A stretch of 64,000 bases of DNA, taken from IMG/VR virus record IMGVR_UViG_3300025070_000022, positions 1-64,000 of that record. One strand, written 5' to 3'. Shown piece after piece: positions 10,318 to 45,647 of this stretch. How positions within the stretch are numbered: position 1 is the first letter of the stretch; each line of letters opens with the position of its first letter. Origin of the DNA: a virus. The notes beneath the pieces were generated by a model. The model ran no database searches. It had not been told where the DNA came from and saw only the letters and a list, made by a program, of their open reading frames with translations. Made by a program: the position numbers and the translations under genes.

Positions 10318-11765
10318 TTCAAGGAACTGCTCAACAAGAAGCAATTTGGGATGAAATGCAAAACGGTAATGGCGACATTATGGTTGGAGCCGGTGCTGGC
10401 ACTGGTAAGACTTTCACAATTGTAGAAGGTGCAAATCGAATGTCCGGTAACATGGCGTTCTTCGCATTCAACAGTTCAATCGCTAAGGAACTTGGTAAGA
10501 GATTGCCCGATACAGTTTATGCCGCTACCTTTCACTCAATGGGACTAAAGGTAATCAAGGAAAACATCGGCTTTCGTAAGTTAGACAAGTGGAAGAGTTC
10601 AAACATCATCCGAGAAGTCATTGGTGAGAACTACTACGCACAGCCATTGGTCAAACTAATCAGTTTGATGAAGGGTGGTCTTATAGAAGCAACAGATAGG
10701 AAATCAATCAAGGGATTGATAGACCTATACCACATCCAATTCAAAACAGACAGTGACGAAGTTATGGCTTTGAAGAATCTTCCCGTAATTATGCAGAAGA
10801 TTAAATCATACCATACTATTGATTTCGATGATATGATTTGGCTTCCTATTGCGCTAAATATGCCAATGAAGAAATACGATGTTGTCTTTGTCGATGAGGC
10901 ACAAGACTTCAATCAAGCACAACGAATGCTCATACTAAAGTGTCTAGATGAAAACTCTCGATGCGTTATTGTTGGCGACCCAAATCAAGCAATCTATGGA
11001 TTTCGAGGAGCAGACTCTTCTTCTATGTCTTTGTTTGAAAAGAGCCTACTTCAACTGGGACGCACAGTAAGTAAGTATCCACTTTCTTTAACATGGCGTT
11101 GTCCAACTAGTGTGGTAGAAGAAGCCAATCGCTTCGTCAAGGATTTCCATGCTATTGAAGATGCCAAGGAAGGCAAAGTAGTGACCCATGCGGCCTTTGA
11201 GCCGGTCAAGGGTGACATGGTACTGTGTCGCTACAATGCTCCCCTCGCTAGTGCGTTCTACCGCTTGATTTCTAAGGGTAAATCTGCCTACATTCTAGGT
11301 AGTGACTTAGGGAAAGGGCTTGTCCAAAGTGTGAAGAAAATCACAAAGGACATGAACATGACTACCGATATGTTTGCTGAAAAATTAGACGATGAATATG
11401 TCCGTCAGCGAACTAAACTACAGGAGCAAAAGAAGTTGGCACAACTTAATACTCTTGAAGACCGACACGAATGTATTTGTCTTTTCGTTTATAGAACAAA
11501 AACTGTGAGAGAACTAATTGCTGAAATCGAAAGAGTCTTCCCTTACAAAGATGGCAAGGGAGATATTATGCTCTCTACTGTTCACAAAGCAAAGGGACTA
11601 GAAGCAGACAATGTGTATATTCTTGCTACTGAAAGAATGCCGCATCCAAGGGCAATAAACATGCGTGAAGAGATGAACATTTGCTATGTTGCTATTACAA
11701 GGGCCAAGAATAATCTTTACTATGTTGGACCTAAACCCGCAGAAGGAGTTGTACGAAATGGCTAG
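10314..11765 (+). CDS. Superfamily 1 (UvrD/Rep-like) helicase
   Basis: AGAGTGKT Walker A, VDEAQD, VGDPNQAIYGFRGA, STVHKAKGLE, YVAITRAK. Confidence 0.92.
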   Translation: MIQGTAQQEAIWDEMQNGNGDIMVGAGAGTGKTFTIVEGANRMSGNMAFFAFNSSIAKELGKRLPDTVYAATFHSMGLKVIKENIGFRKLDKWKSSNIIREVIGENYYAQPLVKLISLMKGGLIEATDRKSIKGLIDLYHIQFKTDSDEVMALKNLPVIMQKIKSYHTIDFDDMIWLPIALNMPMKKYDVVFVDEAQDFNQAQRMLILKCLDENSRCVIVGDPNQAIYGFRGADSSSMSLFEKSLLQLGRTVSKYPLSLTWRCPTSVVEEANRFVKDFHAIEDAKEGKVVTHAAFEPVKGDMVLCRYNAPLASAFYRLISKGKSAYILGSDLGKGLVQSVKKITKDMNMTTDMFAEKLDDEYVRQRTKLQEQKKLAQLNTLEDRHECICLFVYRTKTVRELIAEIERVFPYKDGKGDIMLSTVHKAKGLEADNVYILATERMPHPRAINMREEMNICYVAITRAKNNLYYVGPKPAEGVVRNG

Positions 11766-12051
11766 ACACACTTCAGTTACACACCGAAGAAATAGAAAGA
11801 AGTTCAAAGGAAAGAATTCTTACGCTCTTTCTGCTATGGATGAATGTTTCGATAAAAAGAGCGAGTGGTATTCTAAGGACTTATTCGTAGAAGTAAAGGG
11901 TATGATTCACCCTAACCACATGCCTAGGAATGTTCATGCTATGAGTTCGCTATTGCGTAGATACTATGCCAAGGCTAACGAACAAGACGGTACTTTAGGA
12001 CATAGAGAATCTGCCAACTATGTTGCATTGTGGAAGAGGCGAGAAGTATGA
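11758..12051 (+). CDS. Hypothetical, possibly winged-helix protein
   Basis: ORF track; basic N-terminus. Confidence 0.65.
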   Translation: MARHTSVTHRRNRKKFKGKNSYALSAMDECFDKKSEWYSKDLFVEVKGMIHPNHMPRNVHAMSSLLRRYYAKANEQDGTLGHRESANYVALWKRREV

Positions 12052-12221
12052 AGGATAGATGGAACGACGACCCCGAATATTTGATTAAATTAATCAATGA
12101 ATTCCATCAGTGGATGGTTTATGCTTCTACGCACAACTACAACAATACGAAAGTATTAGTTGATGCCTACAAAACTTTCTTTGCTGGACAATTGAGTGAT
12201 TCCGATGATAAATTGGATTAA
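12048..12221 (+). CDS. Hypothetical protein
   Basis: ATGA-coupled ORF. Confidence 0.55.
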   Translation: MKDRWNDDPEYLIKLINEFHQWMVYASTHNYNNTKVLVDAYKTFFAGQLSDSDDKLD

Positions 12222-12444
12222 GACATTCTTTGTCAGTGAAGAAAGAGTTGAAAGAAAACCAAAGTGCGGCAAATGCGGCCTTGGTGCTTCTGTCAATATG
12301 CTAATTGAATTCCAAACTCTAGATATGGAGGAGATGGAAGAAAAGATACTAACTCGACTATGCTACGGGTGCATGGAAGATATTCATATAAGATACAATC
12401 CTAAATGGATACCCGAACCAATAATGAGGAATAAAAATGAATGA
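12205..12444 (+). CDS. Small Zn-finger protein
   Basis: CGKC...CYGC. Confidence 0.6.
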   Translation: MINWIKTFFVSEERVERKPKCGKCGLGASVNMLIEFQTLDMEEMEEKILTRLCYGCMEDIHIRYNPKWIPEPIMRNKNE

Positions 12445-12655
12445 AAAAAATATGAAAGAATACTACGATGATATGCTAAACGAAGTGTTTCCTAAGACAA
12501 ATATATCCGGAATAGATTACCCCTACTCCTATTTATTGAAGGAAATTGACCCGATTGCATACGAAGTTGGAATGAGCGACTATGAAAGCGTACTCCGTGA
12601 AGCACACGAAGAAGACGGTTCCTATGCCGACCTATTTGGAGATGAAGAAGAATGA
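12437..12655 (+). CDS. Conserved-type small phage protein
   Basis: YDDMLNE...S.LLKEIDPIAYEVGMSDY pattern common in phage small proteins. Confidence 0.7.
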   Translation: MNEKNMKEYYDDMLNEVFPKTNISGIDYPYSYLLKEIDPIAYEVGMSDYESVLREAHEEDGSYADLFGDEEE

Positions 12656-15112: not shown

Positions 15113-16188
15113 AGAAGTTCAAGAGAGAACTAGGCAATGGCCGATGGGACCAAGCACTAAAGCGTGAACTTACCTTTCTATCCGAGGCTGATAACTACGA
15201 TGATGCTAAACTAGAATGGGAGGCTACTGGTGAGTGTTGGTGGTGGAATGGTGAAGATAATGCTGAAATACCCGAATGGATTAGAGACTATGGCTACTGT
15301 CTTTGTGGCCACAGCATTGTTTATCACTTCGCTATTCGTAATACTATCACTGGACTTACTATGGCTGTTGGTTCCGACCACATCAACTCCTATCTTATCT
15401 TGAAAGAGATTGAAAAGAATACTGGCATTGATAGGAAACTTATCACAGACGCTATGATTGAAGAATGGATTTCTGTTCGTATTGAAGGAATGAAGAATGA
15501 AGCATGGTGGTCTAAACACGGTGAGGATTTTGTTGAGAAGTTCACAGCAGTACGAGAATTGGACTTACGGTTGAATGTCAAAAGTACTTGGAAAGGTACT
15601 AAATTACGAAAGAGGGCTAACGACGATGGTATTGCTTCTATTGTTTGGAGATGGAACCATCCCGATAATCGTAGGGCGCAGATAAATGGAAGGGGTTATC
15701 CTAACAAGTCATTGTTAGCCGACCTAGACTATTTTTACAGATTTGTCGGAGGAGCGACAATCAATGGTCGCTCTTTTACAGAAGAAGAGTATGCTGACTA
15801 TCGAAAATCACTAGAAGATAAAAGAACCAAGTGGTCTACTAGTGAAATGTTAGAATGGTATGGTTTTTCCGATAAAGGTTATTTACAAAATTGGGAATTC
15901 CTATCTCCTGCTGAAAAGAATTTCATTAGGAAGTTGCACGATAGTTATTTGATGGCACATCGAAACTCGAATTACATGTCATTAAGTGCAGATGACATTC
16001 AAACTATCAAGCGTTTTATTGAATCGCCGGATGATTGGCTAATTGAAAAGGCGCAAGAGTTGAACATGGAGAACAGCGACATAGAAAGATTCTCCAAACT
16101 ACAACTAGGACGGGCTATTGCTCTAGAGCAAGCCCAACAGAAAAGGGAAAGTGACCGCTTAAATAGTGGTAGGACATGGGAGAAATGA
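15103..16188 (+). CDS. Hypothetical protein with CxCGH...GSDH metal-binding domain
   Basis: CLCGHSIVYHFAIRN...VGSDHI. Confidence 0.75.
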   Translation: MALKKFKRELGNGRWDQALKRELTFLSEADNYDDAKLEWEATGECWWWNGEDNAEIPEWIRDYGYCLCGHSIVYHFAIRNTITGLTMAVGSDHINSYLILKEIEKNTGIDRKLITDAMIEEWISVRIEGMKNEAWWSKHGEDFVEKFTAVRELDLRLNVKSTWKGTKLRKRANDDGIASIVWRWNHPDNRRAQINGRGYPNKSLLADLDYFYRFVGGATINGRSFTEEEYADYRKSLEDKRTKWSTSEMLEWYGFSDKGYLQNWEFLSPAEKNFIRKLHDSYLMAHRNSNYMSLSADDIQTIKRFIESPDDWLIEKAQELNMENSDIERFSKLQLGRAIALEQAQQKRESDRLNSGRTWEK

Positions 16189-16201
16189 GAAAGGTGATAT
16201 T

Positions 16202-16408
16202 ATGATTACACTACGAATTTTAAACGAAACAGGACACACACAAGTTGAGATGGCTTCTTCCGAAGTCATTGAACAAATCGACAACCATCCGACACACTGG
16301 ATTTTTGTCGATGGAGAGATGATTAGCCGTCAAGACCTTGCTGGTATCAATTGGGATACCGTCGCATCTATTGACCTAACCCCCGCTATTGTCGGAGGTT
16401 CTCTCTGA
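16202..16408 (+). CDS. Ubiquitin-like (beta-grasp, SAMP/ThiS/MoaD-like) protein with GG-SL C-terminus
   Basis: 68 aa; IFVDGE and IDLTPAIVGG-SL match the ThiS/MoaD C-terminal pattern. Confidence 0.75.
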   Translation: MITLRILNETGHTQVEMASSEVIEQIDNHPTHWIFVDGEMISRQDLAGINWDTVASIDLTPAIVGGSL

Positions 16409-16452
16409 GGTTGTCCTCTCCCCCATAACCAAAACTTTCCCCAAGTGAAACT

Positions 16453-16743
16453 ATGGCTCTCTTCCGAGATTTCGATGAGTGTAAGAAACTCGCTGTTCTT
16501 ATTCTTGACGATTTCTTGGAAGAGAGTCACCCCGATTACCAAAGAGTAGTCGAAAGAATCCGCTACGAAGAAACGAGCGGAAGAACAAGTAAGGCCCAAT
16601 GCTACATGGTCATTACAAAAATAAAACAAGCCCTATGGAATAGCAATATTGCTGTAGAAATAGGGTTTCATGCCTACCTAGAAAGAAAGGTAGTTCAAAA
16701 AAGATTCATTTTAGAATACCAAGAGGCGAATAAAGATGAGTAA
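16453..16743 (+). CDS. Hypothetical protein
   Basis: ORF track. Confidence 0.65.
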   Translation: MALFRDFDECKKLAVLILDDFLEESHPDYQRVVERIRYEETSGRTSKAQCYMVITKIKQALWNSNIAVEIGFHAYLERKVVQKRFILEYQEANKDE

Positions 16744-16894
16744 AAACCCAGAATATACTAACAACAATCGAGGTCGCCCTATAGCGACCAAATGCAGAGT
16801 TTGTGGCGGCTCTTTAATAACACCACAAGACATGAAATTAGAGGCGCATGAACCCTGCCTCAAACAATACAAATCAAAAACATACATGATGTGA
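16736..16894 (+). CDS. Micro Zn-finger protein (52 aa)
   Basis: Manual translation: CRVCGG...HEPC. Confidence 0.6.
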   Translation: MSKNPEYTNNNRGRPIATKCRVCGGSLITPQDMKLEAHEPCLKQYKSKTYMM

Positions 16895-16898
16895 TAAT

Positions 16899-18188
16899 AT
16901 GCAAAGAACAATTAGATTTAATCGAGACATTACTCATGGTGGGCCGCTAACTTGTACGGTCCACTTTGAATACGAAGGGCAAATAATACAATGGACTCAG
17001 CACCAAGTAGGGTCTGTCTTCTCTTTCGACGCCAATGCTTTAGGGTCTGCTGACCCTATCTTAGAACAATGCACCTCCGCCTTTTATAGTACTCTAAAAG
17101 GAGCATATTCTAGAACCCAATGGTATAGAACTACAGCCCATTTGCGTAGAACTTTAGTGGCTGACGATATTATGTTTATCGTATCTTTCCCTACTTCCGG
17201 CCATACTGCTGAAGTCATAATCTCTAAGAAAGGTAGTTCCTATTCTATTAATGGAATTACTATGGCTAGAAAGCAAATAGCCCCTGTCTTGGCCCGTATT
17301 CTATTGGACCTTAATGCTAAGAGCAAGAGAAAGGTAATGACCTATAGAGATTGTAGAAATGTTGTCACTTCTGCGATTACAGTTCCCGAAGACATTCGAT
17401 ATGTACTAACTTCCCGACTACCTTACACTTACTATAGAGAAGGTAACACTGTCCAAGTGAGGCTAAAGGTTATGCAAATATCGGATGATGATTATGCCAT
17501 TGAGATTAGTTCTAATGTATGGGGTAAAATATCTTCAAAGAACTTATTGACTCTCATAGGATTCTATCGACACGGGAAGAAAGTCGGTAATTGGAAGTTC
17601 CTAAGCCCCAAGACTTTGTTTGAACGGCTAGTTGGTAGAGAACCTACAGACTCGGAAGTGAAACTAATGCATGCCTTCCTAGAACAAAACCGCTCGGAGA
17701 AGTTAGTACAAGAGAGAGCAATGACTTTGTTAGATGATTTGCTAAAACAATACCCTACTAGAGTCATTAGAAACGATTGTGCAGAAATGATTAGAATAAT
17801 CGTTTTGGGTAAATCTTGTGATTGGTTGCTAACTGGTAGCAAAGAATCTTTGAATCGAGTTACGATAGGCCCACAAGCAGTGGCGACTAGAACCATGTTG
17901 AATGAAACTTCTTCGGAGGGTGAAGGCTTTACTCAAATGAAGTGGGGTAGTAGTATTTGTATTAATACTGGAGGGAAGAACCCTTCCCTTGGCGACCAAT
18001 TTGCATCTAGAATTCTTTCCCTATTGAATGATACTATTACAATAGGTAGGGTTAGTACTCTAAGTTCTTACCTACACAAAGAGAAACCTAGGTTGGTTTT
18101 TGAGAATTTGAAAACCCGTCACTTTGCTAGTGATTTTAATGGAGATGTAAATAATGAATTGCTTAGAATGCCAGTCGAAGAAGTTTAG
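16899..18188 (+). CDS. Hypothetical protein; C-terminal domain is a candidate E2/UBC-like fold
   Basis: 429 aa; WGSSICINTG recalls the E2 G-x-IC catalytic-Cys segment (weak). Confidence 0.55.
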   Translation: MQRTIRFNRDITHGGPLTCTVHFEYEGQIIQWTQHQVGSVFSFDANALGSADPILEQCTSAFYSTLKGAYSRTQWYRTTAHLRRTLVADDIMFIVSFPTSGHTAEVIISKKGSSYSINGITMARKQIAPVLARILLDLNAKSKRKVMTYRDCRNVVTSAITVPEDIRYVLTSRLPYTYYREGNTVQVRLKVMQISDDDYAIEISSNVWGKISSKNLLTLIGFYRHGKKVGNWKFLSPKTLFERLVGREPTDSEVKLMHAFLEQNRSEKLVQERAMTLLDDLLKQYPTRVIRNDCAEMIRIIVLGKSCDWLLTGSKESLNRVTIGPQAVATRTMLNETSSEGEGFTQMKWGSSICINTGGKNPSLGDQFASRILSLLNDTITIGRVSTLSSYLHKEKPRLVFENLKTRHFASDFNGDVNNELLRMPVEEV

Positions 18189-19020
18189 TTTTGATGAGAA
18201 TTTAGGTGAAATGATTTGTGTAGATTGTGGCTTAGTTATGGTCACAGAACCCTTTGAGCAAGGCGTGTATTTACAAGATAACCAAGGCTCCATAATTAGG
18301 GAGAGATGGTCTTCCAATCTACATGAAATGGGACTACAAACAATAAAGAAAAAGACCATATCCTTCGCTCAAATTGAAAACAAAGCAGTGTATAAAGGAG
18401 TTTCAATGTGTAGGCTATTAATGGCTTCTCTAAAGATACCAAGGACTTCTGTCGTCTTTACTTCAGTCGAGGAACTGTATTTGTCATTATACCGAAGACA
18501 TACCTTCACTACAATACCTCTTGAAGATAGGGCGGCGGCACTAGTCTACTATTCTTTGAAGAATGAAGCACTGCCTTTCACGCTAAAAGAAGTGTGTGCA
18601 GAATTCGAGTGTAATAAGAGACTCGTATTTAAGTTGGCTAGGAAAATAGCAAAGGAAGAAAACAATACGGGAGTATTCCTAATAAAAGAATGTAGACCAT
18701 TTGCTGAAAAATATGCTATGTTGTTAGTAGAAGAACTAACCCACTACCCTTCTTATCTAAGAAAGGTTTCGCAGTTATCAATTTATTTTGATAACTTACT
18801 CTCTAAATCTAGTGAGAACATAAAACCAAGCACTCCAGCCGCCTACTGTTCTATTGTGGCTACTATGGAGAACATGAACATAACGAACAAGAAAATAGAA
18901 TCGGTTAGTGGTATTGGGTATGATGCCATTGGCCGAGAAGCCAAGAGACTTCTAAAAATAATTAATACCAATAAAAAACAAATAAAAGGAAAGGGAATAG
19001 AATGCCTAGAAAAATACTAA
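18154..19020 (+). CDS. tfb: Transcription factor B (TFIIB/TFB) homolog
   Basis: CLECQS...DENLGEMICVDCGLV Zn ribbon; AAALVYYS and PAAYCSIV cyclin-repeat helices. Confidence 0.85.
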   Translation: MNCLECQSKKFSFDENLGEMICVDCGLVMVTEPFEQGVYLQDNQGSIIRERWSSNLHEMGLQTIKKKTISFAQIENKAVYKGVSMCRLLMASLKIPRTSVVFTSVEELYLSLYRRHTFTTIPLEDRAAALVYYSLKNEALPFTLKEVCAEFECNKRLVFKLARKIAKEENNTGVFLIKECRPFAEKYAMLLVEELTHYPSYLRKVSQLSIYFDNLLSKSSENIKPSTPAAYCSIVATMENMNITNKKIESVSGIGYDAIGREAKRLLKIINTNKKQIKGKGIECLEKY

Positions 19021-19595
19021 TAATCGGAGCCGGTGGAATTGGGAGTTATCTCATTGACACCTTGAACAACCTAACAGGAAATGGAAGTTACGAGCGGGAA
19101 CTCTACGAGATTACCGTAAGCGACCCCGACACTGTAGAAGAAAAGAATGTGACATACCAACGCTTTACAACAGATAATGTTGGAAAGAACAAAGCGTTTG
19201 TTATGAAGTCTAACTATGAACAAGTAAAGATTGGAAACAAATATCCAATTTTAGTTGACGACCAATTGAAAGGATATGACCTAGTGGTTTGTTGCGTTGA
19301 TAATTTGAACACACGACGCATGCTATACAAGGCAAATGTAGAAGAAGTAAAGTGGCTAGACCTTCGTTCACAAGGAAGAAACGCCGCAATGATTTCTTAC
19401 TTAGCAGAACCAAACACCTATGATTCGCTATTGGCTGGTCCGGATGGTTCTTTCTCATGTCAAGGAGATTCTTGGGATGGTAGCAAGGAAGGTATTCATT
19501 TCATGCATGCTGTAATTGCTAGTATAGGCGCACAGTGGATACAACGCTGGTTTGTTGGAGAGAGTGTTAATGCGTTTATGGTGGTGAATGTATGA
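19002..19595 (+). CDS. ThiF/MoeB/E1-like activating enzyme
   Basis: IIGAGGIGS, DPDTVEEKN..Q, K in GKNKA, DLVVCCVDN..R; candidate catalytic Cys in SFSCQ. Confidence 0.88.
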   Translation: MPRKILIIGAGGIGSYLIDTLNNLTGNGSYERELYEITVSDPDTVEEKNVTYQRFTTDNVGKNKAFVMKSNYEQVKIGNKYPILVDDQLKGYDLVVCCVDNLNTRRMLYKANVEEVKWLDLRSQGRNAAMISYLAEPNTYDSLLAGPDGSFSCQGDSWDGSKEGIHFMHAVIASIGAQWIQRWFVGESVNAFMVVNV

Positions 19596-19849
19596 AGTGT
19601 TGTGTTTGTAAAGGCGACATACAAGAGCATAGTCACAACGGTAAAGTCTATTGGACGGAAGGGCATAACGCACAACCTTTGGTAGATGGCCGTTGCTGTG
19701 ACGATTGTAATAATTATGTGGTCGGATTTAGAATATTCTGTTTCACCAATCAATCTTTAAATAAAGAAGAATGGGGAATACAAAAACTACGATACATACA
19801 AGCGGCAGTTCAAGAGCAACTAATTAGAAGTAAGGAGGAAGAGGAATGA
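19592..19849 (+). CDS. Small Zn-finger protein
   Basis: CCVC...GHNAQP...GRCCDDCN. Confidence 0.7.
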   Translation: MKCCVCKGDIQEHSHNGKVYWTEGHNAQPLVDGRCCDDCNNYVVGFRIFCFTNQSLNKEEWGIQKLRYIQAAVQEQLIRSKEEEE

Positions 19850-20436
19850 GTAGAAGCGGAGATTGGTACATAAAAGTACACGGAGAAGACGACGATAGAC
19901 ATGACTGGGGTGAAGCAGAAGCAGACCACGAAGCGCACTGTCAAGGTCTAATCGAGAAATTGATTAGAGATGGTTTTGATGGCGATTGGTCAGCAGTAGC
20001 ATTTCACAATTCTATTTGGGAGGCATCTACTGAAATTCTTAATGGATTGGAAGTACAAGTTGTTGTAGATGGTAAAGATAATCTACACATTTCTTTTGGT
20101 ACTGCTGGTTTTGTTTCCTTCAAGGTTGACCCTGTTGGAATGACTCTACCGATTAAGTGCTGGATTCATACTCACCCTTTCGGCTCTGCTTACTTTAGTG
20201 GTACTGACTGGAATACAGTTGGCAAGTGGGAGCCTTTGATGCACAATGCTATTGTTCTAGGTGGCATAGGTCACTATGGCATTTGGAATAATAAGCACCC
20301 CAAACATCTTGACATCTATCGTAATTTTGAATACGACAGAAGGCAACATAAGCGAGAATACAAACCTGCTGAAATTAAAACGACTATCAATGAAATGCTA
20401 CTAGAGAAGAATTGGGATAGAGGTGAAGAAGAATGA
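19846..20436 (+). CDS. JAB/MPN+ (JAMM) metalloprotease
   Basis: E(VQV)...WIHTHPFGSAYFSGTD = E-Xn-HxH-X7-S-X2-D. Confidence 0.88.
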   Translation: MSRSGDWYIKVHGEDDDRHDWGEAEADHEAHCQGLIEKLIRDGFDGDWSAVAFHNSIWEASTEILNGLEVQVVVDGKDNLHISFGTAGFVSFKVDPVGMTLPIKCWIHTHPFGSAYFSGTDWNTVGKWEPLMHNAIVLGGIGHYGIWNNKHPKHLDIYRNFEYDRRQHKREYKPAEIKTTINEMLLEKNWDRGEEE

Positions 20437-20573
20437 AGCAAAGCGAAGCAGAGAACATGGACGATGAAGATTTTAGAGAATGGTGGATAAACGAAGTGAG
20501 TGGTATTCCCAAAGGCGAATTGATTCAACTGTTTATGACTGTCGAATGGCAACTCATAGAGGTGGATAAATGA
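20433..20573 (+). CDS. Micro-ORF (46 aa)
   Basis: MKQSEAENMDDEDFREWWINEV...; ATGA overlaps at both ends. Confidence 0.55.
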   Translation: MKQSEAENMDDEDFREWWINEVSGIPKGELIQLFMTVEWQLIEVDK

Positions 20574-21160
20574 ATATATTTGCATTAACCAAAGACCCAG
20601 TACTATCAGCACAACAGATGTTAGACAAGCATGTGGTAAAAATGCCAACAGAAAGTTGTCAAATGTTGCACACAAACAGTCTGTATTTCCATTACAAAAG
20701 CGTTTATGGTACAGAACCTTCTCTCAAAGAATTGAAAGAATTTCATGTATTCATCAACTCTAAATTGATGAAGCCAGCCATGCTCAATCATCCTAGCACT
20801 ATTTGGGCAAGAACAACAAAGGCTAACTACATGTGGCTCTACAAACATGCCATTGCTCTATGTAAAGAATACACATTTAGGTATGGTAAGATTCACGGTA
20901 CAGAAAAAAGAATTGGCGACAGTTTCACTTTCTCTTATGAAGAAGAGGACTTAACTCCTGTGTCTATTGCTATGGCTGATATTTACCGTCTACCAAAGGA
21001 AAGACACAGTTGGGACTTTGTTATCAAGTCTTATCGTCACTATTACCTACAAGGTAAGTGGGACTTTGCTACTTGGAAAAAAGATAGAAGACCGGAATGG
21101 TGGCCCGAAAATCACTATCATAATATGATAAAGAATAGAAAACCCTTTGGAGGTAATTGA
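20570..21160 (+). CDS. Pyrimidine-dimer DNA glycosylase-like (DenV/Pyr_excise family) protein
   Basis: MNIF...DKHVVKM..ES.QML, NHPSTIWAR, EYT.RYGKIH. Confidence 0.75.
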   Translation: MNIFALTKDPVLSAQQMLDKHVVKMPTESCQMLHTNSLYFHYKSVYGTEPSLKELKEFHVFINSKLMKPAMLNHPSTIWARTTKANYMWLYKHAIALCKEYTFRYGKIHGTEKRIGDSFTFSYEEEDLTPVSIAMADIYRLPKERHSWDFVIKSYRHYYLQGKWDFATWKKDRRPEWWPENHYHNMIKNRKPFGGN

Positions 21161-21417: not shown

Positions 21418-21636
21418 ATGAAGGCAATTGGAAATTGGGTGATACTGAAAACACAAGAAGAAGTTAGCGGTAGCGGCATTGTTTCTATAAATGATAATAT
21501 TTGTTTGGTTGTTGACTGCAACTATGATGATAGTATTGTTGGAAAGAAAGCAATCTACAATGCTAGTGGCAACCACTTCACTTACAATGAATTCATCATC
21601 GTTGAATGGAAGGACATTATGGCGGTGGTTGAGTGA
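21418..21636 (+). CDS. groES: GroES-like co-chaperonin
   Basis: MKAIGNWVIL...SGSGIV mobile-loop pattern, DIMAVVE end; directly upstream of groEL. Confidence 0.7.
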   Translation: MKAIGNWVILKTQEEVSGSGIVSINDNICLVVDCNYDDSIVGKKAIYNASGNHFTYNEFIIVEWKDIMAVVE

Positions 21637-23171
21637 TTCTAAACGGTAAAGAAGTTGGAGAGAAATTGCTAGAAGGTATTAGTTTAGTCGCTGATACTGT
21701 AGCCCCAACATTCGGGCCACAGGCCAAGACTGTAATCCTACAAGGTAATCCTCCAGTCGTAATCAATGACGGCGTTACTATCACTAAGTATGTGCGTTCC
21801 GAAGACCCATATGCTCAGTTGGGAGTCCAACTTGTTCAAGACTTAGCATCAAAGGCTCAATCAAAAGCCGGTGACGGAACAACCACTGCTTGTATTTTGG
21901 CTAGAGCATTATGCAAATCACTACATGAATTTAGAGATGCTAGAAGCATCCACGAATGGAGAACATACCTAACAGATGTTAGAGATGGTCTTCTATCTTA
22001 TTTGGATGATAGTAGTATTCCTGTCACCGACGATGATATTCAAAAGATTGCTACTATTGCGGCCAACAATGATGAAAAACTAGGCGAACTTATTGCTGAG
22101 GTTTTCAAAGCAGTTGGTAGAAACGGAGTAGTTTCTGTCGAAGAAAGTTTAGACTTGAATACTTCCTTTGAGATTAAGGAAGGACTAGAATTAGAGAGTG
22201 GTTACATTAGCCACTTGTTTGCTAATCGAGATAACGGAGATTGTGTTTTAGAGAATCCACTCATCTTATCCACTAACAAAATCATTAGAAAGTTCCAAGA
22301 CATTTTACCTGCTTGTGAATATGCTTCACAGAAAGGAAGACCCCTACTACTAGTTTGTAGGGGACTACAGAACATGGCTTTACAGAATGTCTTGTTGAAT
22401 GTAGCCCAAGGTAGACTCGATGTAGGAGTTATCGAAACTCCCAATTATGGAGATGCACAATTGGATGAACTCAAAGACTTGATAGCCGTTGTTGGTGGTA
22501 AAGCCTATTCCGATGAAGCAGACGACGACCTAAGAATAGTCAACGAGAATACCCTAGGTAGTTGTTCTAAAGTTGTTATTGATAAAGTCAAGACTACTAT
22601 TGTTGGAGGTAACGGAGGAGAGGCAGTTGTTGAAAGAATAGAAGCCTTGAGAAAACTTCACGAATTGGGTACGAATGAATTTGTGAAGGAAAGCATCTCT
22701 AAGAGAATCTCTAGGCTTAGTGGAGGTATCGCAGTAATCCGTGTGGGTGCTGGTTCATCCGTTGAAATGAGAGATACTAAAGAAAGACTTGATGATGCAC
22801 TCAACGCAACTAAGGCCGCTCTAGACGGCGGCTATATTGTAGGTGGTGGACTTACTATCCTAAAGTTCCAAACCCATTGGCCCCAAGAAAAACCTGTTGA
22901 CTATAGAATGTCAATGGCAACACTTCTATCTCCAATAGATACGCTCATGGGTAATAGTGAGTTTCCTCTAGCCGAATATGATATTGTAATTAATAGATGG
23001 ATTGAGGATAAAGAAGGCTGGCAAGGATTCAATGCTAAGGAAGTCACCATTAGTGATTTATTGATTGATGGAATCATTGACCCAACTCTTGTAACAAAGA
23101 GTAGTGTGTCTGCGGCCTTCTCTATTGCCATGATGTTTTTAACAACCGATGTAGCAGTTCTTCTTGAGTGA
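21633..23171 (+). CDS. groEL: Group I chaperonin GroEL
   Basis: TFGP, INDGVTI, AGDGTTTA, KERLDDALNATKAA, GIIDP. Confidence 0.95.
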   Translation: MILNGKEVGEKLLEGISLVADTVAPTFGPQAKTVILQGNPPVVINDGVTITKYVRSEDPYAQLGVQLVQDLASKAQSKAGDGTTTACILARALCKSLHEFRDARSIHEWRTYLTDVRDGLLSYLDDSSIPVTDDDIQKIATIAANNDEKLGELIAEVFKAVGRNGVVSVEESLDLNTSFEIKEGLELESGYISHLFANRDNGDCVLENPLILSTNKIIRKFQDILPACEYASQKGRPLLLVCRGLQNMALQNVLLNVAQGRLDVGVIETPNYGDAQLDELKDLIAVVGGKAYSDEADDDLRIVNENTLGSCSKVVIDKVKTTIVGGNGGEAVVERIEALRKLHELGTNEFVKESISKRISRLSGGIAVIRVGAGSSVEMRDTKERLDDALNATKAALDGGYIVGGGLTILKFQTHWPQEKPVDYRMSMATLLSPIDTLMGNSEFPLAEYDIVINRWIEDKEGWQGFNAKEVTISDLLIDGIIDPTLVTKSSVSAAFSIAMMFLTTDVAVLLE

Positions 23172-24129: not shown

Positions 24130-24361
24130 GTGGGTTGAACTAGCAAGTTATCTTTGGTTTCTTAAAAAAATGAAACAGGGAAGACACGAACACATTGAGG
24201 AATTAATAAAACTCGTAAATGCTAGAATATTTACTGCTGGAATAGAAGAAGTAAGGGTGGAAGATAATGACGATGAGCCACCTAGCAAGACTTTGCGAAA
24301 CGATGCAGAAAAAAACATCAGCACAACAGACTCGTCTAATTCTTCAAGCGTTTGGTTCTAA
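24116..24361 (+). CDS. Hypothetical protein (overlaps ligase 5' end)
   Basis: ORF track. Confidence 0.45.
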   Translation: MKKSEWVELASYLWFLKKMKQGRHEHIEELIKLVNARIFTAGIEEVRVEDNDDEPPSKTLRNDAEKNISTTDSSNSSSVWF

Positions 24362-25772
24362 GCACATTCAACCACTACAACTTTTAAAGATACTAACTCT
24401 AGATTTAGAAAGTTCTAATATTGGTAAGCACAAAACAAAGAAGTGGATTTGTGAACACTTTGGTATATTTATAGAAGAGTTGGAAATATACGGAGATGAT
24501 TTGGGAAGAGCCGTATTCAATCTAGAAAGAGATAAACAGAAGACAGCCGACTATAGCCTAAATATGGTTATGCGACTCTTAGAAATGGATTCTAGACAGA
24601 AAGGTTCCTTTGAATTATTCTCCGAAGTTCTAGAAAGCCTATCTTCTATTGAAAGAAAATGGTTCATTTCTTTTTGGGTTAGAGAGCCTAAACTAAAGAT
24701 GGACAGAAAAAGAATCGTAGTCAATACCCTAAGCAAGTATTTTAATTTAGAACGCTCTTTAGTAGAAAAAGATTCCAAGATGCACGAACTAGATACTATG
24801 TATCATGCCTATTCTAATGATAGGAAATTAAGAAATGAATCAACTCATGGGTTGTTCATACCACCTATGTCAGCAAAGTCAAATACTAAGTGGAGCAAGT
24901 ATATACAACCTACTAATTCTATTTGTGAATACAGGTATGGTGGCATAAAAATACAGATTCATAAGAAAAAGAATAATATTATCTTCTTCAACAGAAAGGG
25001 CAAAATACTCACCTTGCCTAAGAGAATTAAGAGTTACATAGCCGACTACCCATCCGACTTCATTTTGGAGGCTGAACTCTATTGTGTAGACTCAGATGAA
25101 AAACCGCTAGACTACTATGAAGTGTTGAAGGTACTTCACAACAACCATGCTCAAACACAGGACTCTCTAAGGTATGTAATATTAGACTGCCTATCAAAGA
25201 ACGGAAGATGTATGATGAATGCGCCCTTCTCGGATAGGCTCAAGGCACTAGAAGAACTACCATGTCCTCCAACTAGGTCGGAAGAAAACGAGCCGTCTAA
25301 GGCGTTCTACAACCAAGCAATTAGTGATGGGTTCGATGGCATCCTCATTAGAGATTTAGATAGTAAGTACTATCCCAATGAAAATAGCGTAGCCGTCGTC
25401 ATACACTCTCCTCCTAGAATAGACTTGAACTTGGTAGTTGTAGGGGCAAAGGTAGATGACAAGAATGGCTTCTCAAGTTTTGAAGTGGCCTGTAGAAAGG
25501 AAAACGGATATGTTTCACTTGGTTATGTTTCTGGACTTTCTACAATAAATCACAAATTACTTTCTAATATGCTAAGGAAGATAGTTTCTTCGTTTAAGAA
25601 TAAAAAGTATTCTTTCTTACCTAGAGTAGTTTTGCATGTGAAAGCAGAAATAATAATGAAAAAGGATGATAAATACTCCCTAAGACTATCTAGAATACAT
25701 GCAATAAGAACTGATAAGTATGCGATAGACTCTAGTACAATTCAAGAAGTTGATGCCATAGGGGGGTTTTAA
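24267..25772 (+). CDS. ATP-dependent DNA ligase homolog with degenerate catalytic motifs
   Basis: DBD-NTase-OB layout; motif I reads EYRYGG instead of EYKYDG; ILEAEL; DGILIRD. Confidence 0.8.
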   Translation: MTMSHLARLCETMQKKTSAQQTRLILQAFGSKHIQPLQLLKILTLDLESSNIGKHKTKKWICEHFGIFIEELEIYGDDLGRAVFNLERDKQKTADYSLNMVMRLLEMDSRQKGSFELFSEVLESLSSIERKWFISFWVREPKLKMDRKRIVVNTLSKYFNLERSLVEKDSKMHELDTMYHAYSNDRKLRNESTHGLFIPPMSAKSNTKWSKYIQPTNSICEYRYGGIKIQIHKKKNNIIFFNRKGKILTLPKRIKSYIADYPSDFILEAELYCVDSDEKPLDYYEVLKVLHNNHAQTQDSLRYVILDCLSKNGRCMMNAPFSDRLKALEELPCPPTRSEENEPSKAFYNQAISDGFDGILIRDLDSKYYPNENSVAVVIHSPPRIDLNLVVVGAKVDDKNGFSSFEVACRKENGYVSLGYVSGLSTINHKLLSNMLRKIVSSFKNKKYSFLPRVVLHVKAEIIMKKDDKYSLRLSRIHAIRTDKYAIDSSTIQEVDAIGGF

Positions 25773-32335: not shown

Positions 32336-34081
32336 ATGATAATCTCACATAATAATTCAAATATTTACATATCGTGGAGAGAAAATGGTACTAAGCACGA
32401 TTCTACTATTCCGTTTCGCCCATACTTTTTTGTGGAAGAGACTAGTAAGGAACCACCTACTTACCAGCCTAGTAAGTACATTACTAGGGAAATAGAATAC
32501 GAGAGAGGCGATTGGGTTAATCTTGAAGGTACTCGATTGAAGAAAGTCTATGCAGAAATGCCGGAAGACTTGAGGAATTTGAAGAGTTCCTTTTCTAGAA
32601 CTTACGAGGCTGATGTACCTTACCCCTACAGATATTGTGTAGACCGATTAGAAGAAATCAAAGAGTACGATATGCGTAAGTGGTATTGGGATATGGAATG
32701 GCAACAAGGTGGAGAACACCATGATAAGATTACTACTATTGTAATGTATGATAATTACGATAAGGAATACTATCAATGGGTTTGGTTTCCCGACCAAGAA
32801 CCCTATGATGGATTCAAAGCCTCCACTGATAAAGCACAACATTTATCGGTCTTTAATACAGAAGAAGAAATGATTGAATCTTTCTTGACTACAATGATAG
32901 AGAAAGACCCCGACATGTTAATTGCATGGTTTGGTAATTGGGCCGACCTTCCTAAGTTGTTTTCTAGATGTGCCTTCTACGATATTGACCCTAGCGTTAT
33001 TTCTCCTTTGGGAGTTGTTGATGGTATAAAGGTCAAAGACGGTAAGGTAAGATTCACTAAAGAAGAGAATGGCTATCACGCTACTGCTCAACCCATCCGA
33101 GGTAGGATTACACTAAACTTGGACATGGCTTTTGAAAGACAATGGAATGATGCACAAAAAGGCACACTACCTAGTCTCTCTCTAGATTATGTTTCTACTG
33201 CATTATTCGGTGAAGGTAAATCTAAGGAAACTAAATTTGAAGATGCTAACGAGTTTTATCGTAGAGGTTGGCTAGAAGACACTCAAGCCTACTTGAAGTA
33301 TGCTTTGATAGATGTAGAATTACTAGTAAAGATTGATGAAACTAACTTCTGTAGTGAAGCCATTCTTTCTTTACAGCGATTACTAATTGCTCCTTTCGAT
33401 GCTTGCTTCTTTGCTTCTAACATGGGTTCAATCTACTTTATGAGAAACGCTTGGTGGAAAGCCCCAACGGGAGAGAAGCCTAAGTTCAAAGTCTGCGATA
33501 AGTGCAATCATAAGAATCCAAACGAGAAGACACTAAGAGAGTGTAAGAAGTGCGGAGCAAGCCTATCTTATTCGGGTGCTATGATTTACAATCCTACTGA
33601 CGAAGGTACTAACGGGTTGCATTACAATGTAGCCGCTTTTGACTTTGCTGGTCTTTATCCTAGTATGATTATTGCTAGGAATATCTCGTTTGAAACTCTT
33701 ACAGAAGAGCCAACACTATTCAGTGCTGACTTGAATACTCCACAGAATCTACAGCCCGTAGCAGAAGACTACGAGAAAGACATGCGCTATTTCAAGACTG
33801 ACGAATTGGGACTATTGCCTCGCTCTCTTATCGACTTGAAAGAGTTGAGAGGCGAGTACAAGAAGTACATGAAAGAGGCTAGGAAGGCTGGAGATAAGGA
33901 GGCTGTTGTTAAGTGGAACAACAATCAAATGGCTGTAAAGCGTTTGATGGCTTCCTTCTATGGTATCCTTGCCTTCAAGGGATTCGGTTGGGCGAATGTA
34001 GACCTAGCCGCTAGCATTACTGCTAGTGCAAGAGAGGCTATTCGTAAGGCCGCATTTACAGCAAGGGAGATGGAAGGATGA
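32336..34081 (+). CDS. polB: Family B DNA polymerase, N-terminal part (3'-5' exo, motifs A and B)
   Basis: WDME, YALID, DFAGLYPS, K.LMASFYG; CDKC...CKKC insertion; ends before motif C. Confidence 0.93.
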   Translation: MIISHNNSNIYISWRENGTKHDSTIPFRPYFFVEETSKEPPTYQPSKYITREIEYERGDWVNLEGTRLKKVYAEMPEDLRNLKSSFSRTYEADVPYPYRYCVDRLEEIKEYDMRKWYWDMEWQQGGEHHDKITTIVMYDNYDKEYYQWVWFPDQEPYDGFKASTDKAQHLSVFNTEEEMIESFLTTMIEKDPDMLIAWFGNWADLPKLFSRCAFYDIDPSVISPLGVVDGIKVKDGKVRFTKEENGYHATAQPIRGRITLNLDMAFERQWNDAQKGTLPSLSLDYVSTALFGEGKSKETKFEDANEFYRRGWLEDTQAYLKYALIDVELLVKIDETNFCSEAILSLQRLLIAPFDACFFASNMGSIYFMRNAWWKAPTGEKPKFKVCDKCNHKNPNEKTLRECKKCGASLSYSGAMIYNPTDEGTNGLHYNVAAFDFAGLYPSMIIARNISFETLTEEPTLFSADLNTPQNLQPVAEDYEKDMRYFKTDELGLLPRSLIDLKELRGEYKKYMKEARKAGDKEAVVKWNNNQMAVKRLMASFYGILAFKGFGWANVDLAASITASAREAIRKAAFTAREMEG

Positions 34082-34955: not shown

Positions 34956-35129
34956 ATTTACCTTACTGGTATTTAACAGAACTAACTCATAGTCCAGTTG
35001 GAGAATTACTATATTTTACGATAGTTTTGATTCCGTTTAGACTTGCTTTAAAATATTTATACAAGAGTTGGAAAAGTAATGATAGACAACCTAGTTTTTG
35101 GGATGATTACGATACGGAGGTTCGATAAT

Positions 35130-36014
35130 ATGGAAGTAGTTTATGGACACACAGACTCAATCTATGTCAAGGTAGATTCTATAGAGTCGGCCTTTTCATC
35201 TCTCGAAAAAATAAATGAAGAAGTTAGAACTATCTTTCCTAATTTACTAGGCCTAGAAGAACACCCTGTTATTCTAGAATTTGAGAAATACTTTGAATCA
35301 TTAGGTGTAGGAATTACAAAAAACAGAAACGCTGGTTTAATTTCTTGGGAAGATGGAGTTTGGTTAGACGAGCCTAAATTTACTCTAACAGGATTTACTT
35401 CTAAGAGAATTTCCGAAACAACAACGATGAAAGAAGTTCAAACAGTGGCCCTCAATATGTGGGTTTCCGGTAAATCGGAACTAGAAATAGTCGATTACGC
35501 TAAGTCTGTTTATGCCAAAGTCCTTTATGGGGAAATCAATTACCGTGAAGTAGCAAAAAGAACTAGACTAAAGAAAGAGAGATTCCAAGTCAAATGTACC
35601 TGTAATAGAAAGTACGACATTAGAGAAATATCTTGGACTGATGGTGAGTTCTTTTGTGGAAAGTGTGCAAAACACCCTTCTAAGTTCCTAACAGCCAAGG
35701 GAAAGAAGCCGACTATAAGCGAAGGCATTGTAGGTGTATTGTATTCCATGCAAGAAAGAAACCTTACCTTTGAAGACTCCTATGTATTCTTAAGAATAAG
35801 ACCAGTTGGATTCTTTACTGACCCCTTAACCGGAGTTCGTAAAGAAGCCACTTATGTTTCCGGAAATACTTTTTCCGAGATAGAGGGTTTTGAACCCGAT
35901 TGGCCCCACTACGCCGAACAAGTAGTGAAAAAAGTACAACCCATTTTCGATGCTATGGGTTGGGATACTAAACAAATTAAAACTAAGCAACGAACTTTTG
36001 ATGAATGGTGGTAA
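35130..36014 (+). CDS. polB: Family B DNA polymerase, C-terminal part (motif C, thumb)
   Basis: MEVVYGHTDS, LEFEK, KNRNAG, Cys-cluster insertion, PIP box QRTFDEWW; GGAGG SD. Confidence 0.92.
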   Translation: MEVVYGHTDSIYVKVDSIESAFSSLEKINEEVRTIFPNLLGLEEHPVILEFEKYFESLGVGITKNRNAGLISWEDGVWLDEPKFTLTGFTSKRISETTTMKEVQTVALNMWVSGKSELEIVDYAKSVYAKVLYGEINYREVAKRTRLKKERFQVKCTCNRKYDIREISWTDGEFFCGKCAKHPSKFLTAKGKKPTISEGIVGVLYSMQERNLTFEDSYVFLRIRPVGFFTDPLTGVRKEATYVSGNTFSEIEGFEPDWPHYAEQVVKKVQPIFDAMGWDTKQIKTKQRTFDEWW

Positions 36015-45308: not shown

Positions 45309-45647
45309 TCACTCAACCTCTATGCTAATGTAAAAATCAATTTCTTCTCCGGAAGTAAATGGCCCTATTCCATCGAATGTAACTCTAGACAACATTTCTG
45401 TGTATCCGCTATTGAAAATTCCTATTTCTCTTATTGTGTATCCAGCAACGGAGGAACCCAAGAGAGTGAATTTGAAATCTACAATGTTCCCGTCACTAGT
45501 AGTAGAAGAAGCAGAAATATCGTATATGGGTACATCTAGGTTAATAGATGCCGGATTGGTAGAGTTACCACCCACTCCCACCCTAGCCTTTGTAAATGTG
45601 TTTTTCAAATGCAAGGCAATGTTTTCTCTAACGGAATCTACTATCAA
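45309..45647 (-). CDS. Small tail/baseplate protein
   Basis: IREIGIFN...LSRVTF tail-collar-like motif. Confidence 0.65.
   Translation of the reverse strand: MIVDSVRENIALHLKNTFTKARVGVGGNSTNPASINLDVPIYDISASSTTSDGNIVDFKFTLLGSSVAGYTIREIGIFNSGYTEMLSRVTFDGIGPFTSGEEIDFYISIEVE

Follow-up and report, generated by a model that had tools for sequence, protein, structure and literature searches.

On balance, we read a group of genes at positions 16202–20436 of the IMG/VR virus record IMGVR_UViG_3300025070_000022 as a self-contained, virus-encoded pathway of ubiquitin-like protein (Ubl) conjugation that belongs to the core gene set of a magrovirus lineage. The genes encode a Ubl precursor, a multidomain E2-like protein (orf429), a minimal ThiF-type E1 and a JAMM metalloprotease. 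The analysed DNA (the window) comprises 64,000 nucleotides, bases 1–64000 of a single linear record of 89,940 bp that is rated complete by CheckV. The parts of this reading differ in strength: (i) the triad of Ubl, E1 and JAMM very likely acts on a Gly-Gly (GG) terminus, (ii) the chemistry is probably that of protein conjugation rather than of sulfur transfer, and (iii) orf429 would serve as the carrier enzyme (E2), a role to which we give somewhat better than even chances.

Pfam scans of the 61 open reading frames (ORFs) of the window, of 31 ORFs of the other 26 kb and of 1 ORF that straddles both pieces describe a tailed archaeal-type virus. They delineate a replication block (UvrD helicase, ATP-dependent ligase, RFC-like clamp loader, family B polymerase in two ORFs, PD-(D/E)XK nuclease and ERCC4 nuclease) and a morphogenesis block (tail tube protein, capsid protein, prohead protease, portal and terminase). 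Magroviruses rank with the most abundant surface-ocean viruses. Judged by its genes, the present genome matches the magrovirus type of Marine Group II archaea, both in overall content and in carrying a chaperonin, as set out in Philosof et al. (PMC5434244). The module genes stand at the head of the replication/early-type gene block, where they adjoin genes for a viral TFB and for the chaperonin. The ORFs that an earlier note on this DNA had assigned to a tagging module are all present in the ORF list, on the + strand. Neighbouring frames overlap by 35 nt (orf429 and TFB), by 19 nt (TFB and E1) and by 4 nt each on both sides of a short Cys-rich ORF between E1 and JAMM. The earlier note had placed the TFB stop on the E1 start; the overlap itself stands, with E1 starting inside the 3′ end of the TFB gene, and the coincidence of stop and start does not. 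In relatives the spacing between TFB and E1 can reach about 0.8–3 kb.

Conservation of the gene set in related viruses

We collected loci around relatives of the E1 from IMG/VR, where 100 of 109 candidate stretches encode such a relative, kept the best 80 and searched their 6-kb flanks by tblastn at 1e-3. JAMM is found in 79 of these loci, the chaperonin in 78, TFB in 74, orf429 in 69, the small zinc protein orf52 in 66 and Ubl in 53. Ubl lies 3–6 kb upstream of E1, and its shortfall is therefore largely a matter of flank length; the lower counts of the other genes are likewise compatible with the 6-kb limit. For loci anchored on a Ubl profile (185 of 200 stretches confirmed, best 80 kept) the flanks were extended to 10 kb, and 73 loci retained at least 9.5 kb downstream. 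All 73 carry orf52, orf429, TFB, E1, JAMM and chaperonin in the same order and orientation, and the other 7 end at contig ends. Since the locus sets share contigs, some of them near-identical, these counts overstate independence, and the 73 loci do not represent independent events. A set anchored on the capsid gene was chosen independently of the module (582 matches, best 80 kept), and its 9 records of at least 66 kb were used. E1 and Ubl are each present in 7 of these 9 and in all five of those with a completeness of 90% or more; where E1 is missing, Ubl is missing too, in two records of 72% and 77% completeness. The co-occurrence of Ubl, E1 and JAMM that the earlier note expected of related genomes is thus observed without exception wherever the flank allows.

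Roughly half of the relatives carry a 2.4-kb insert between Ubl and orf52 that is absent from this genome. The insert was considered as a further part of the module and rejected, as it encodes a class II (B12-type) ribonucleotide reductase (10667–12541 in one relative locus); its presence in some relatives means that the module spans subgroups with different cargo. One related record of 184,733 bases holds two copies each of E1 and Ubl about 90 kb apart and appears to consist of two related genomes fused into a single contig, not of one virus.

Sequence and fold of the module proteins

The Ubl precursor (16202–16408, +) is 68 aa long, with a predicted mature form of 66 aa that ends in ...PAIVGG and is followed by the two-residue tail SL. 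Its ATG at 16202 is internal to a longer GTG-started ORF, and the homologues begin at the same Met. Mean identity in an alignment of 40 sequences is 79%, above that of every neighbouring gene. AlphaFold2 gives a confident model (pLDDT 86.5, pTM 0.70) with the order strand-strand-helix-strand-strand-helix-strand that is typical of a beta-grasp. Foldseek returned nothing at E 0.001 or better, its top rows all being NEDD8, ubiquitin, ISG15, SUMO, MoaD or ThiS (probability ≤0.98, TM about 0.4–0.5), and in two structure searches the top fold matches are Ubl and sulfur-carrier chains only. Model and matches together bear out the beta-grasp fold that had been proposed for this small ORF. Pfam, PHROGs, PADLOC and NCBIfam contain no family that matches the protein, and its profile finds nothing meaningful among PDB sequences (best E 0.35).

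The GG motif occupies positions 65–66 in 65/65 distinct full-length homologues (derived from 132 locus hits), 64 of which have a mature length of 66 aa. The residues after GG vary freely, with 25 different tails: two residues follow in 48 of the distinct Ubls and a single one in 4, while 13 end at GG. An invariant GG with a short tail free to drift looks like a precursor that is trimmed to GG. The earlier note had named three computationally testable findings that would speak against it, namely a small ORF of another fold, a GG that is not conserved in homologues and a failure of Ubl, E1 and JAMM to co-occur; none of them was made. The conservation of GG and of gene order is far beyond chance. 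The Ubl is also poor in lysine, with no Lys in 21/65 and one (Lys3) in 39/65, so that single tags are to be expected and Lys-linked chains are argued against. In the Ubl of the window, Arg43 is the final Lys or Arg; the tryptic remnant would span 23 residues, for which di-Gly proteomics in its usual form is unsuited. Two invariant His-containing surface motifs, N-E-T-G-H-T (8–13) and H-P-T-H-W (29–33), could mediate contacts with E1, E2 or JAMM or bind a metal; we know of no counterpart of them in ubiquitin or SAMPs. A pattern scan of one genome each of ~185,000 prokaryote species gave two true Ubl matches and two spurious partial ones. The true matches, at 71–72% identity, are short contigs (14.8 and 7.5 kb) of one flavobacterial metagenome-assembled genome and most likely represent a mis-binned virus.

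E1 (19002–19595, +) has 197 aa here and about 185 aa in most relatives, and consists of a single ThiF-type adenylation domain. Pfam ThiF is matched well above its cut-off (8.1e-16, 58.3 bits vs 28.1; model positions 22–204 of 238), in agreement with the ThiF/E1 enzyme previously recognised. Invariant in 68 sequences are a G9-x-G11-G12-I-G14-S loop, D41-P-D43, Lys48, Asn49, K64, D100-N101...R105 and R122/Q124/R126/N127, together with the block S-x-S-C153-Q-G-D-S-W-D-G. Cys153 sits 53 residues past D100-N...R105, and from this distance to the DN...R motif we infer that it is the counterpart of the catalytic Cys in MoeB/UbaA-type enzymes; it is also the sole candidate for an E1 thioester. The E1 profile finds the ThiF-type structure 9egc (9egb/9egc) as its best PDB match (6.5e-9), followed by UBA3, UBA5, MccB, Cap2, Uba1, MoeB, Uba4, SAE2, ThiF and TcdA. 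Its best curated family is the PRTRC-system ThiF (TIGR03736) at 1.7e-15 and 57 bits, below the cut-off of 144.75. The NCBIfam model for the SAMP-activating E1 UbaA gives 26.9 bits against a cut-off of 450, and E1 is therefore not of UbaA type by this model. Among PADLOC models, those for CBASS E1–E2 proteins reach 7e-8 and BilD E 0.024. Marine data contain the family in great abundance: among 8,000 candidates scored, no fewer than 1,265 clusters (90% identity) pass E 1e-3, and the 120 clusters listed are 184–203 aa long, nearly all of them 184–192, with parent contigs of not over ~99 kb. Publicly, the proteins of the module are named 'hypothetical', and the E1 sometimes bears a dehydrogenase-type label.

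The JAMM/MPN+ metalloprotease (19846–20436, +) is predicted to remove the residues after GG and is probably a deconjugase as well. E69, H108, H110, S118 and D121 are invariant in 66 sequences, in the exact spacing E...HxHx7SxxD, while the N-terminal ~55 residues are variable; the intact E/HxH/S/D motif that had been read from this gene is thus a property of the family. In the PDB its profile matches AMSH-LP (1.6e-3) and AMSH/Sst2 best and Rpn11 more weakly (0.06–0.2), and no PADLOC defence model is matched. The motif is intact in 73/73 full-flank loci, including 12/12 whose Ubl already ends at GG, so that trimming of the precursor cannot be the only task of the enzyme. By analogy to HvJAMM1 (PMC4443979) and BilC (PMC10557695), this second role is probably deconjugation.

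The candidate E2, orf429 (16899–18188, +), comprises N-terminal domains (~1–255) and a UBC/RWD-like domain (~261–403) with the invariant Cys354 (codon 17958–17960). Its relatives are likewise multidomain proteins, 380–480 aa in length, with the E2-like domain at the end. Sequence conservation is low, with 34% mean identity in an alignment of 63 sequences and few invariant residues, among them Cys354 (63/63). The structure model is good (pLDDT 83.5) and from residue ~266 onwards follows the order of a UBC domain, with a long helix, a beta-meander, the Cys354 loop and three helices. Cys354 falls between strand 345–349 and helix 364–376 of the model and is equated with the catalytic Cys of E2 enzymes by this topology, not by an inspected superposition. 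The best whole-chain Foldseek match is chain C of the BRCA1-A complex (E 2.4e-3), which we take to be BRE/BRCC45, a tandem UEV protein. An all-against-all comparison covered 48,161 chains; of the 50 rows listed, ~36 are E2, UEV or RWD proteins by their titles, all aligned to ~260–410. Re-ranking of the Foldseek top 1,000 agrees with this likeness; actin-capping protein appears at a similar Z with a much worse rmsd. In BFVD there are three full-length structural homologues, all unnamed (E about 1e-26).

Among 150 listed representatives at 50% identity, Cys354 is conserved in all 132 domain matches that cover the column, within the motif G-P-I-C-I-D-N. It is followed downstream by G-D-Q-x3-R, with D in 138/139, Q in 139/139 and R in 139/139. 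The pattern G-x-[LIV]-C-[LIV]-D resembles the canonical active-site signature of E2s. The earlier proposal of a UBC-type domain around this Cys in the C-terminal ~150 aa is therefore upheld in part: two structural searches and the invariance of the Cys speak for it, while the fold scores against UBC domains are only middling and a link by sequence profile is missing. PHROGs, PADLOC and NCBIfam contain no match to orf429. The ESM Atlas gave no usable feature match for residues 255–410, its own model being poor (pTM 0.20) and its structural rows uninformative. Complex prediction for E1, mature Ubl (1–66) and orf429 255–410 scored 0.00 in two runs without controls, which argues neither for nor against binding. 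A second copy of the E2-like domain was not found in the 89,940-bp genome by profile search (E up to 1) and all-frame motif scan.

Proposed pathway and competing explanations

In the conjugation pathway that we favour, JAMM would trim the 68-aa precursor after Gly66, as the conserved motif of the enzyme and the variable tail of its substrate suggest. E1, probably a homodimer like MoeB/ThiF, would adenylate the exposed Gly-Gly carboxylate, a step in keeping with its ThiF domain and nucleotide-binding motifs, and may load the Ubl onto the invariant Cys153 as a thioester. Fold resemblance and the invariant Cys point to a subsequent transfer of the Ubl to Cys354 in the UBC-like C-terminal domain of orf429. 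With no recognisable E3, target selection would fall to the N-terminal domains of orf429. The same JAMM would reverse the modification, as its retention beside tailless Ubls suggests. Because the genes adjoin TFB and chaperonin in an early-type block, we consider the most plausible targets to be regulatory, replication or proteostasis proteins of host or virus. Narrowing these to transcription factors is a guess that draws on the constant orf52-orf429-TFB trio and on the Haloferax TATA-binding protein, which is sampylated and degraded (PMC4895103). For a functional link to TFB, as raised in the earlier note, the constant adjacency of orf429 and TFB is the one result in favour, and no result supports a particular substrate.

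Tentatively, and with rather less than even confidence, we extend this to a complete and unusually small ubiquitination-type cascade with which magroviruses tag host proteins during takeover. It would consist of a 66-aa lysine-poor tag, an E1 of ~185 aa, an E2 with built-in target-recognition domains and a JAMM deconjugase, and would operate with no E3. In one bold version, host basal transcription or proteostasis factors may be marked for the archaeal proteasome while the virus supplies its own TFB and chaperonin.

Several observations weigh against the conjugation pathway. No target, E3 or conjugate was observed, and no RING was found. None of the 63 orf429 family members matches the UBC, Prok-E2, UEV or RWD families of Pfam, which otherwise yields nothing consistent; a PDB sequence-profile search with whole orf429 and with its C-terminal domain gave 0 matches at E up to 10; and a profile search of 1.84 billion representatives retrieved only its own, closed family of 155 representatives (50% identity). 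A His-Pro-Asn motif upstream of the Cys is a hallmark of canonical E2s, and the orf429 consensus has none upstream of Cys354. In E1, the Arg of the N-L-x-R-Q motif, which functions in ATP binding, is replaced by Tyr52 in 68/68 sequences (position taken from the 9egc alignment). MoeB and ThiF typically carry a C-terminal CxxC zinc site; the viral E1 ends at 197 aa without CxxC zinc pairs, rhodanese or ubiquitin-fold domain, and C98 and C153 are its only invariant Cys in the 68 sequences. Profile alignments to solved E1s span only about the first 100–142 residues and end before Cys153. JAMM scores 17 bits against Pfam Prok-JAB, below the cut-off of 25, in a match that covers residues 104–127 only. 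Among the best structural matches of the Ubl, sulfur carriers (MoaD, TtuB and ThiS) figure as prominently as ubiquitin, and its fold therefore cannot separate tagging from sulfur transfer. Contigs from RNA libraries (three runs, two studies) cover the Ubl gene, in one run over 16118–16443 with one mismatch, and patches of orf96, orf52/orf429, the TFB/E1 junction, E1/Zn85 and JAMM; they indicate presence in RNA libraries only, with no transcript level or ends, DNA carry-over is possible and uncovered parts are uninformative.

The features of orf429 bear most directly on a serious rival, which we regard as unlikely: SAMP-like tagging that needs no E2, in which Ubl, E1 and JAMM form the whole pathway and orf429 is a non-catalytic UBC/RWD scaffold or a factor that partners TFB. 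To our knowledge, archaeal SAMP systems need no E2. The absence of a sequence link between orf429 and E2s fits such a scaffold, as do the RWD/UEV proteins that share the fold without catalysis and top the match list together with the E2s; a scaffold would, however, not be expected to retain a Cys in 132/132 divergent representatives, in G-P-I-C-I-D-N between the last strand and the next helix. The inactive E2-fold domains of bacterial 6e operons characteristically lack this Cys, according to the excerpted text of PMC1779556. Gene order can be read both ways, as orf429 is fixed beside TFB (by overlap here and at constant spacing in relatives) while E1 and JAMM drift 1–3 kb off, yet it accompanies Ubl in 73/73 loci. 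The Haloferax abstracts (PMC4895103, PMC4443979) name only E1, SAMP and JAMM.

Sulfur-carrier chemistry appears improbable to us. Here E1 would convert the Ubl into a thiocarboxylate donor for tRNA thiolation or for small-molecule or DNA modification via host sulfur transferases, and JAMM would process the carrier or release the product, as in CysO/Mec-type pathways. The ambiguous fold of the Ubl would suit this chemistry as well as tagging. The earlier note had argued against cofactor synthesis from missing partners, and this holds across the whole genome: no ThiG/ThiH, MoaE, TtuA/NcsA, CysM, rhodanese or desulfurase domain was detected in its 93 ORFs, and no rhodanese lies on or near E1. An invariant-Cys, UBC-like partner would have no role in sulfur transfer, and among E1 models those of PRTRC and CBASS come nearer to the viral enzyme than UbaA or MoeB do. 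We give still less credence to counter-defence, in which JAMM strips host tags from viral proteins and the viral Ubl and E1 act as decoy or competitor against a host Ubl system. In bacteria, Bil systems tag a phage tail protein as a defence (PMC11601596), so that a viral answer is conceivable, and the retention of JAMM even where the Ubl needs no trimming would suit it. A decoy leaves unexplained, however, why an E1 with intact nucleotide-binding motifs and an invariant-Cys E2-like protein are conserved, and the virtual absence of the Ubl from the ~185,000 species genomes in the pattern search means that it does not mimic a close host protein.

Known systems and neighbouring genes

The prokaryotic combination of Ubl, E2, JAB and E1 was first predicted by Iyer et al. 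(PMC1779556) and was shown biochemically for Bil (PMC10557695, PMC11601596), whose JAB pre-processes the Ubl. Bil (BilABCD) corresponds to operon type 6d of Iyer et al. 2006, in which a standalone Ubl is joined by a JAB, an E1 and an E2 whose Cys is conserved, and the same four analogous parts (PMC11601596) are co-conserved here. In contrast to Bil, a bacterial defence-island system, the present genes form a core set of an archaeal virus, E1 is a single 197-aa domain that only marginally resembles BilD, the E2-like domain ends a multidomain protein, and JAMM, Ubl and orf429 match no defence model. Judged on these sequences, the module should not be classed as a member of Bil. Bub (6E/DUF6527) operons form Tyr/Ser oxyesters and use no catalytic cysteines according to the parts of PMC11601596 used here, whereas E1 and E2-like protein both have an invariant Cys in this module, which also has no DUF6527 protease and a different zinc-motif spacing.

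Among archaeal systems, that of Haloferax combines SAMP1-3, the E1 UbaA and HvJAMM1/2. UbaA also serves sulfur transfer; the virus E1 falls far short of the UbaA cut-off, and no sulfur-transfer partners are detected in the virus. The Caldiarchaeum subterraneum system (Ub, E1, E2, small RING E3 and Rpn11) closely resembles the eukaryotic one in its ubiquitin, E1 and E2 sequences, unlike the present module with its much smaller E1, its E2-like domain without UBC sequence similarity and no RING found. The PRTRC ThiF and the structures 9egb/9egc, the best curated-family and solved-structure matches of E1, are all compact ThiF domains; the score lies below the PRTRC cut-off, however, and no other module protein matches a PRTRC family. 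We found no paper describing 9egb, 9egc or 9egd.

Two virus-encoded precedents deserve comparison. Asgard (Helarchaeota) 'Nidhogg' viruses carry ThiF/E1-like genes that are proposed to act on ubiquitin-type systems (10.1101/2021.07.29.454249). As far as the excerpted preprint goes, these viruses have E1-like genes only, which would hijack the Ubl and E2 of the host, whereas here the virus encodes Ubl, E1, E2-like protein and protease. The same source states that E1-like genes had not previously been described in archaeal viruses, and within the literature so covered the Nidhogg genes are the nearest and only archaeal-virus precedent we found. Phages lambda and T1 likewise encode a Ubl with conserved C-terminal Gly (TAPI) beside a JAB fused to NlpC/P60 (TAPK; PMC1779556). 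These belong to a tail gene cluster without E1 or E2, and their Ubl is fused to another domain, in contrast to the replication/early-type block with E1 and E2-like enzymes described here.

Full-text searches did not find 'magrovirus' together with 'ubiquitin', and 'Poseidoniales' with 'ubiquitin-like' occurred only in an unrelated paper. The ThiF/JAB/ubiquitin-like literature gave no mention of archaeal viruses among the matches listed. The main texts of PMC5434244, PMC10160649 and PMC11706807, supplements apart, do not contain ThiF, JAB, ubiquitin or MoeB, and two of them also do not contain JAMM. The logic of the module is thus known from Bil-type and archaeal Ubl systems; what is new is that an abundant archaeal virus carries it in its core set, that the E1 is minimal and that the E2-like protein is a multidomain sequence orphan. 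If the conjugation pathway is real, Ubl tagging would be not just a weapon of the cell against viruses (Bil, CBASS, ISG15) but a core tool of abundant archaeal viruses, and the set would be the first example of a full Ubl-E1-E2-DUB cascade from a prokaryotic virus. It would also represent a new, sequence-orphan E2 lineage with a bearing on the origin of E2-dependent tagging from E2-less archaeal systems. Few ThiF enzymes that are paired with a Ubl are as small as this E1, which, with the orphan E2-like protein, would widen the known range of the machinery. With proteins of 66, about 185, about 190 and about 400 residues, highly conserved and seemingly E3-free, the set would make a convenient minimal system for biochemistry.

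The remaining genes of the locus lie between and beyond these components. ORF orf96 (16453–16743, +) separates Ubl from orf52, and no T-rich run or hairpin is evident by eye directly after Ubl (16409–16452). The CCHC single-zinc protein orf52 (16736–16894, +) has C20-x2-C23...H38-x2-C41 invariant in 55 sequences, always lies directly upstream of orf429 and may be an accessory subunit. The viral TFB/TFIIB homologue (18154–19020, +) has a zinc ribbon (Pfam Zn_Ribbon_TF, 32.9 bits vs cut-off 29, 4.7e-8) and a cyclin-fold core. Built from 47 homologues, its profile finds TFIIB/TFB structures at 1.5e-15 (residues 13–262) and the archaeal TFB core (1d3u/1ais) at 4e-14, which makes the TFB identity proposed in the earlier note sound. 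The 85-aa Cys-rich ORF between E1 and JAMM (Zn85; 19592–19849, +) was rejected as part of the module, being present in only 11/80 E1-anchored loci, and has no Pfam, PADLOC or NCBIfam match.

Consecutive ORFs of the window between 14000 and 24130 (+) often have Glu-rich tails before the next start (...LEGEE, ...ENKEE, ...SKEEEE in Zn85, ...RGEEE in JAMM, ...DNEEE). These tails probably arise because a purine-rich GGAGG-type ribosome-binding site of the downstream gene overlaps the last codons of the upstream gene, i.e. from translational coupling. Just past JAMM, at 20570–21160 (+), lies a gene for a DenV-type pyrimidine-dimer DNA glycosylase (Pfam Pyr_excise 3.3e-6, PHROG 624 3.4e-49), the position of which varies among relatives. 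A 72-aa ORF (21418–21636, +) directly upstream of the chaperonin (21633–23171) is conserved in 65/80 related loci, has no Pfam match and, by position and N-terminal sequence, is reminiscent of a shortened GroES-type co-chaperonin; magrovirus chaperonins were assumed to be GroES-independent in the excerpted text of Philosof et al. (PMC5434244).

Further along the genome, the tail region contains a 2,161-aa ORF (45647–52129, −) for which Pfam gives nothing at 1e-3. Two ORFs about 1 kb apart (32336–34078 and 35079–36011, +) encode the family B DNA polymerase; they match Pfam DNA_pol_B over 41–196 and 221–342, respectively, and could reflect a split gene, an intein or another insertion. The ATP-dependent ligase of the window (501 aa, 24267–25769) is accompanied by a second ligase-domain protein of 828 aa at 70182–72665 (−) of the genome, outside the window and beside the capsid and protease genes.

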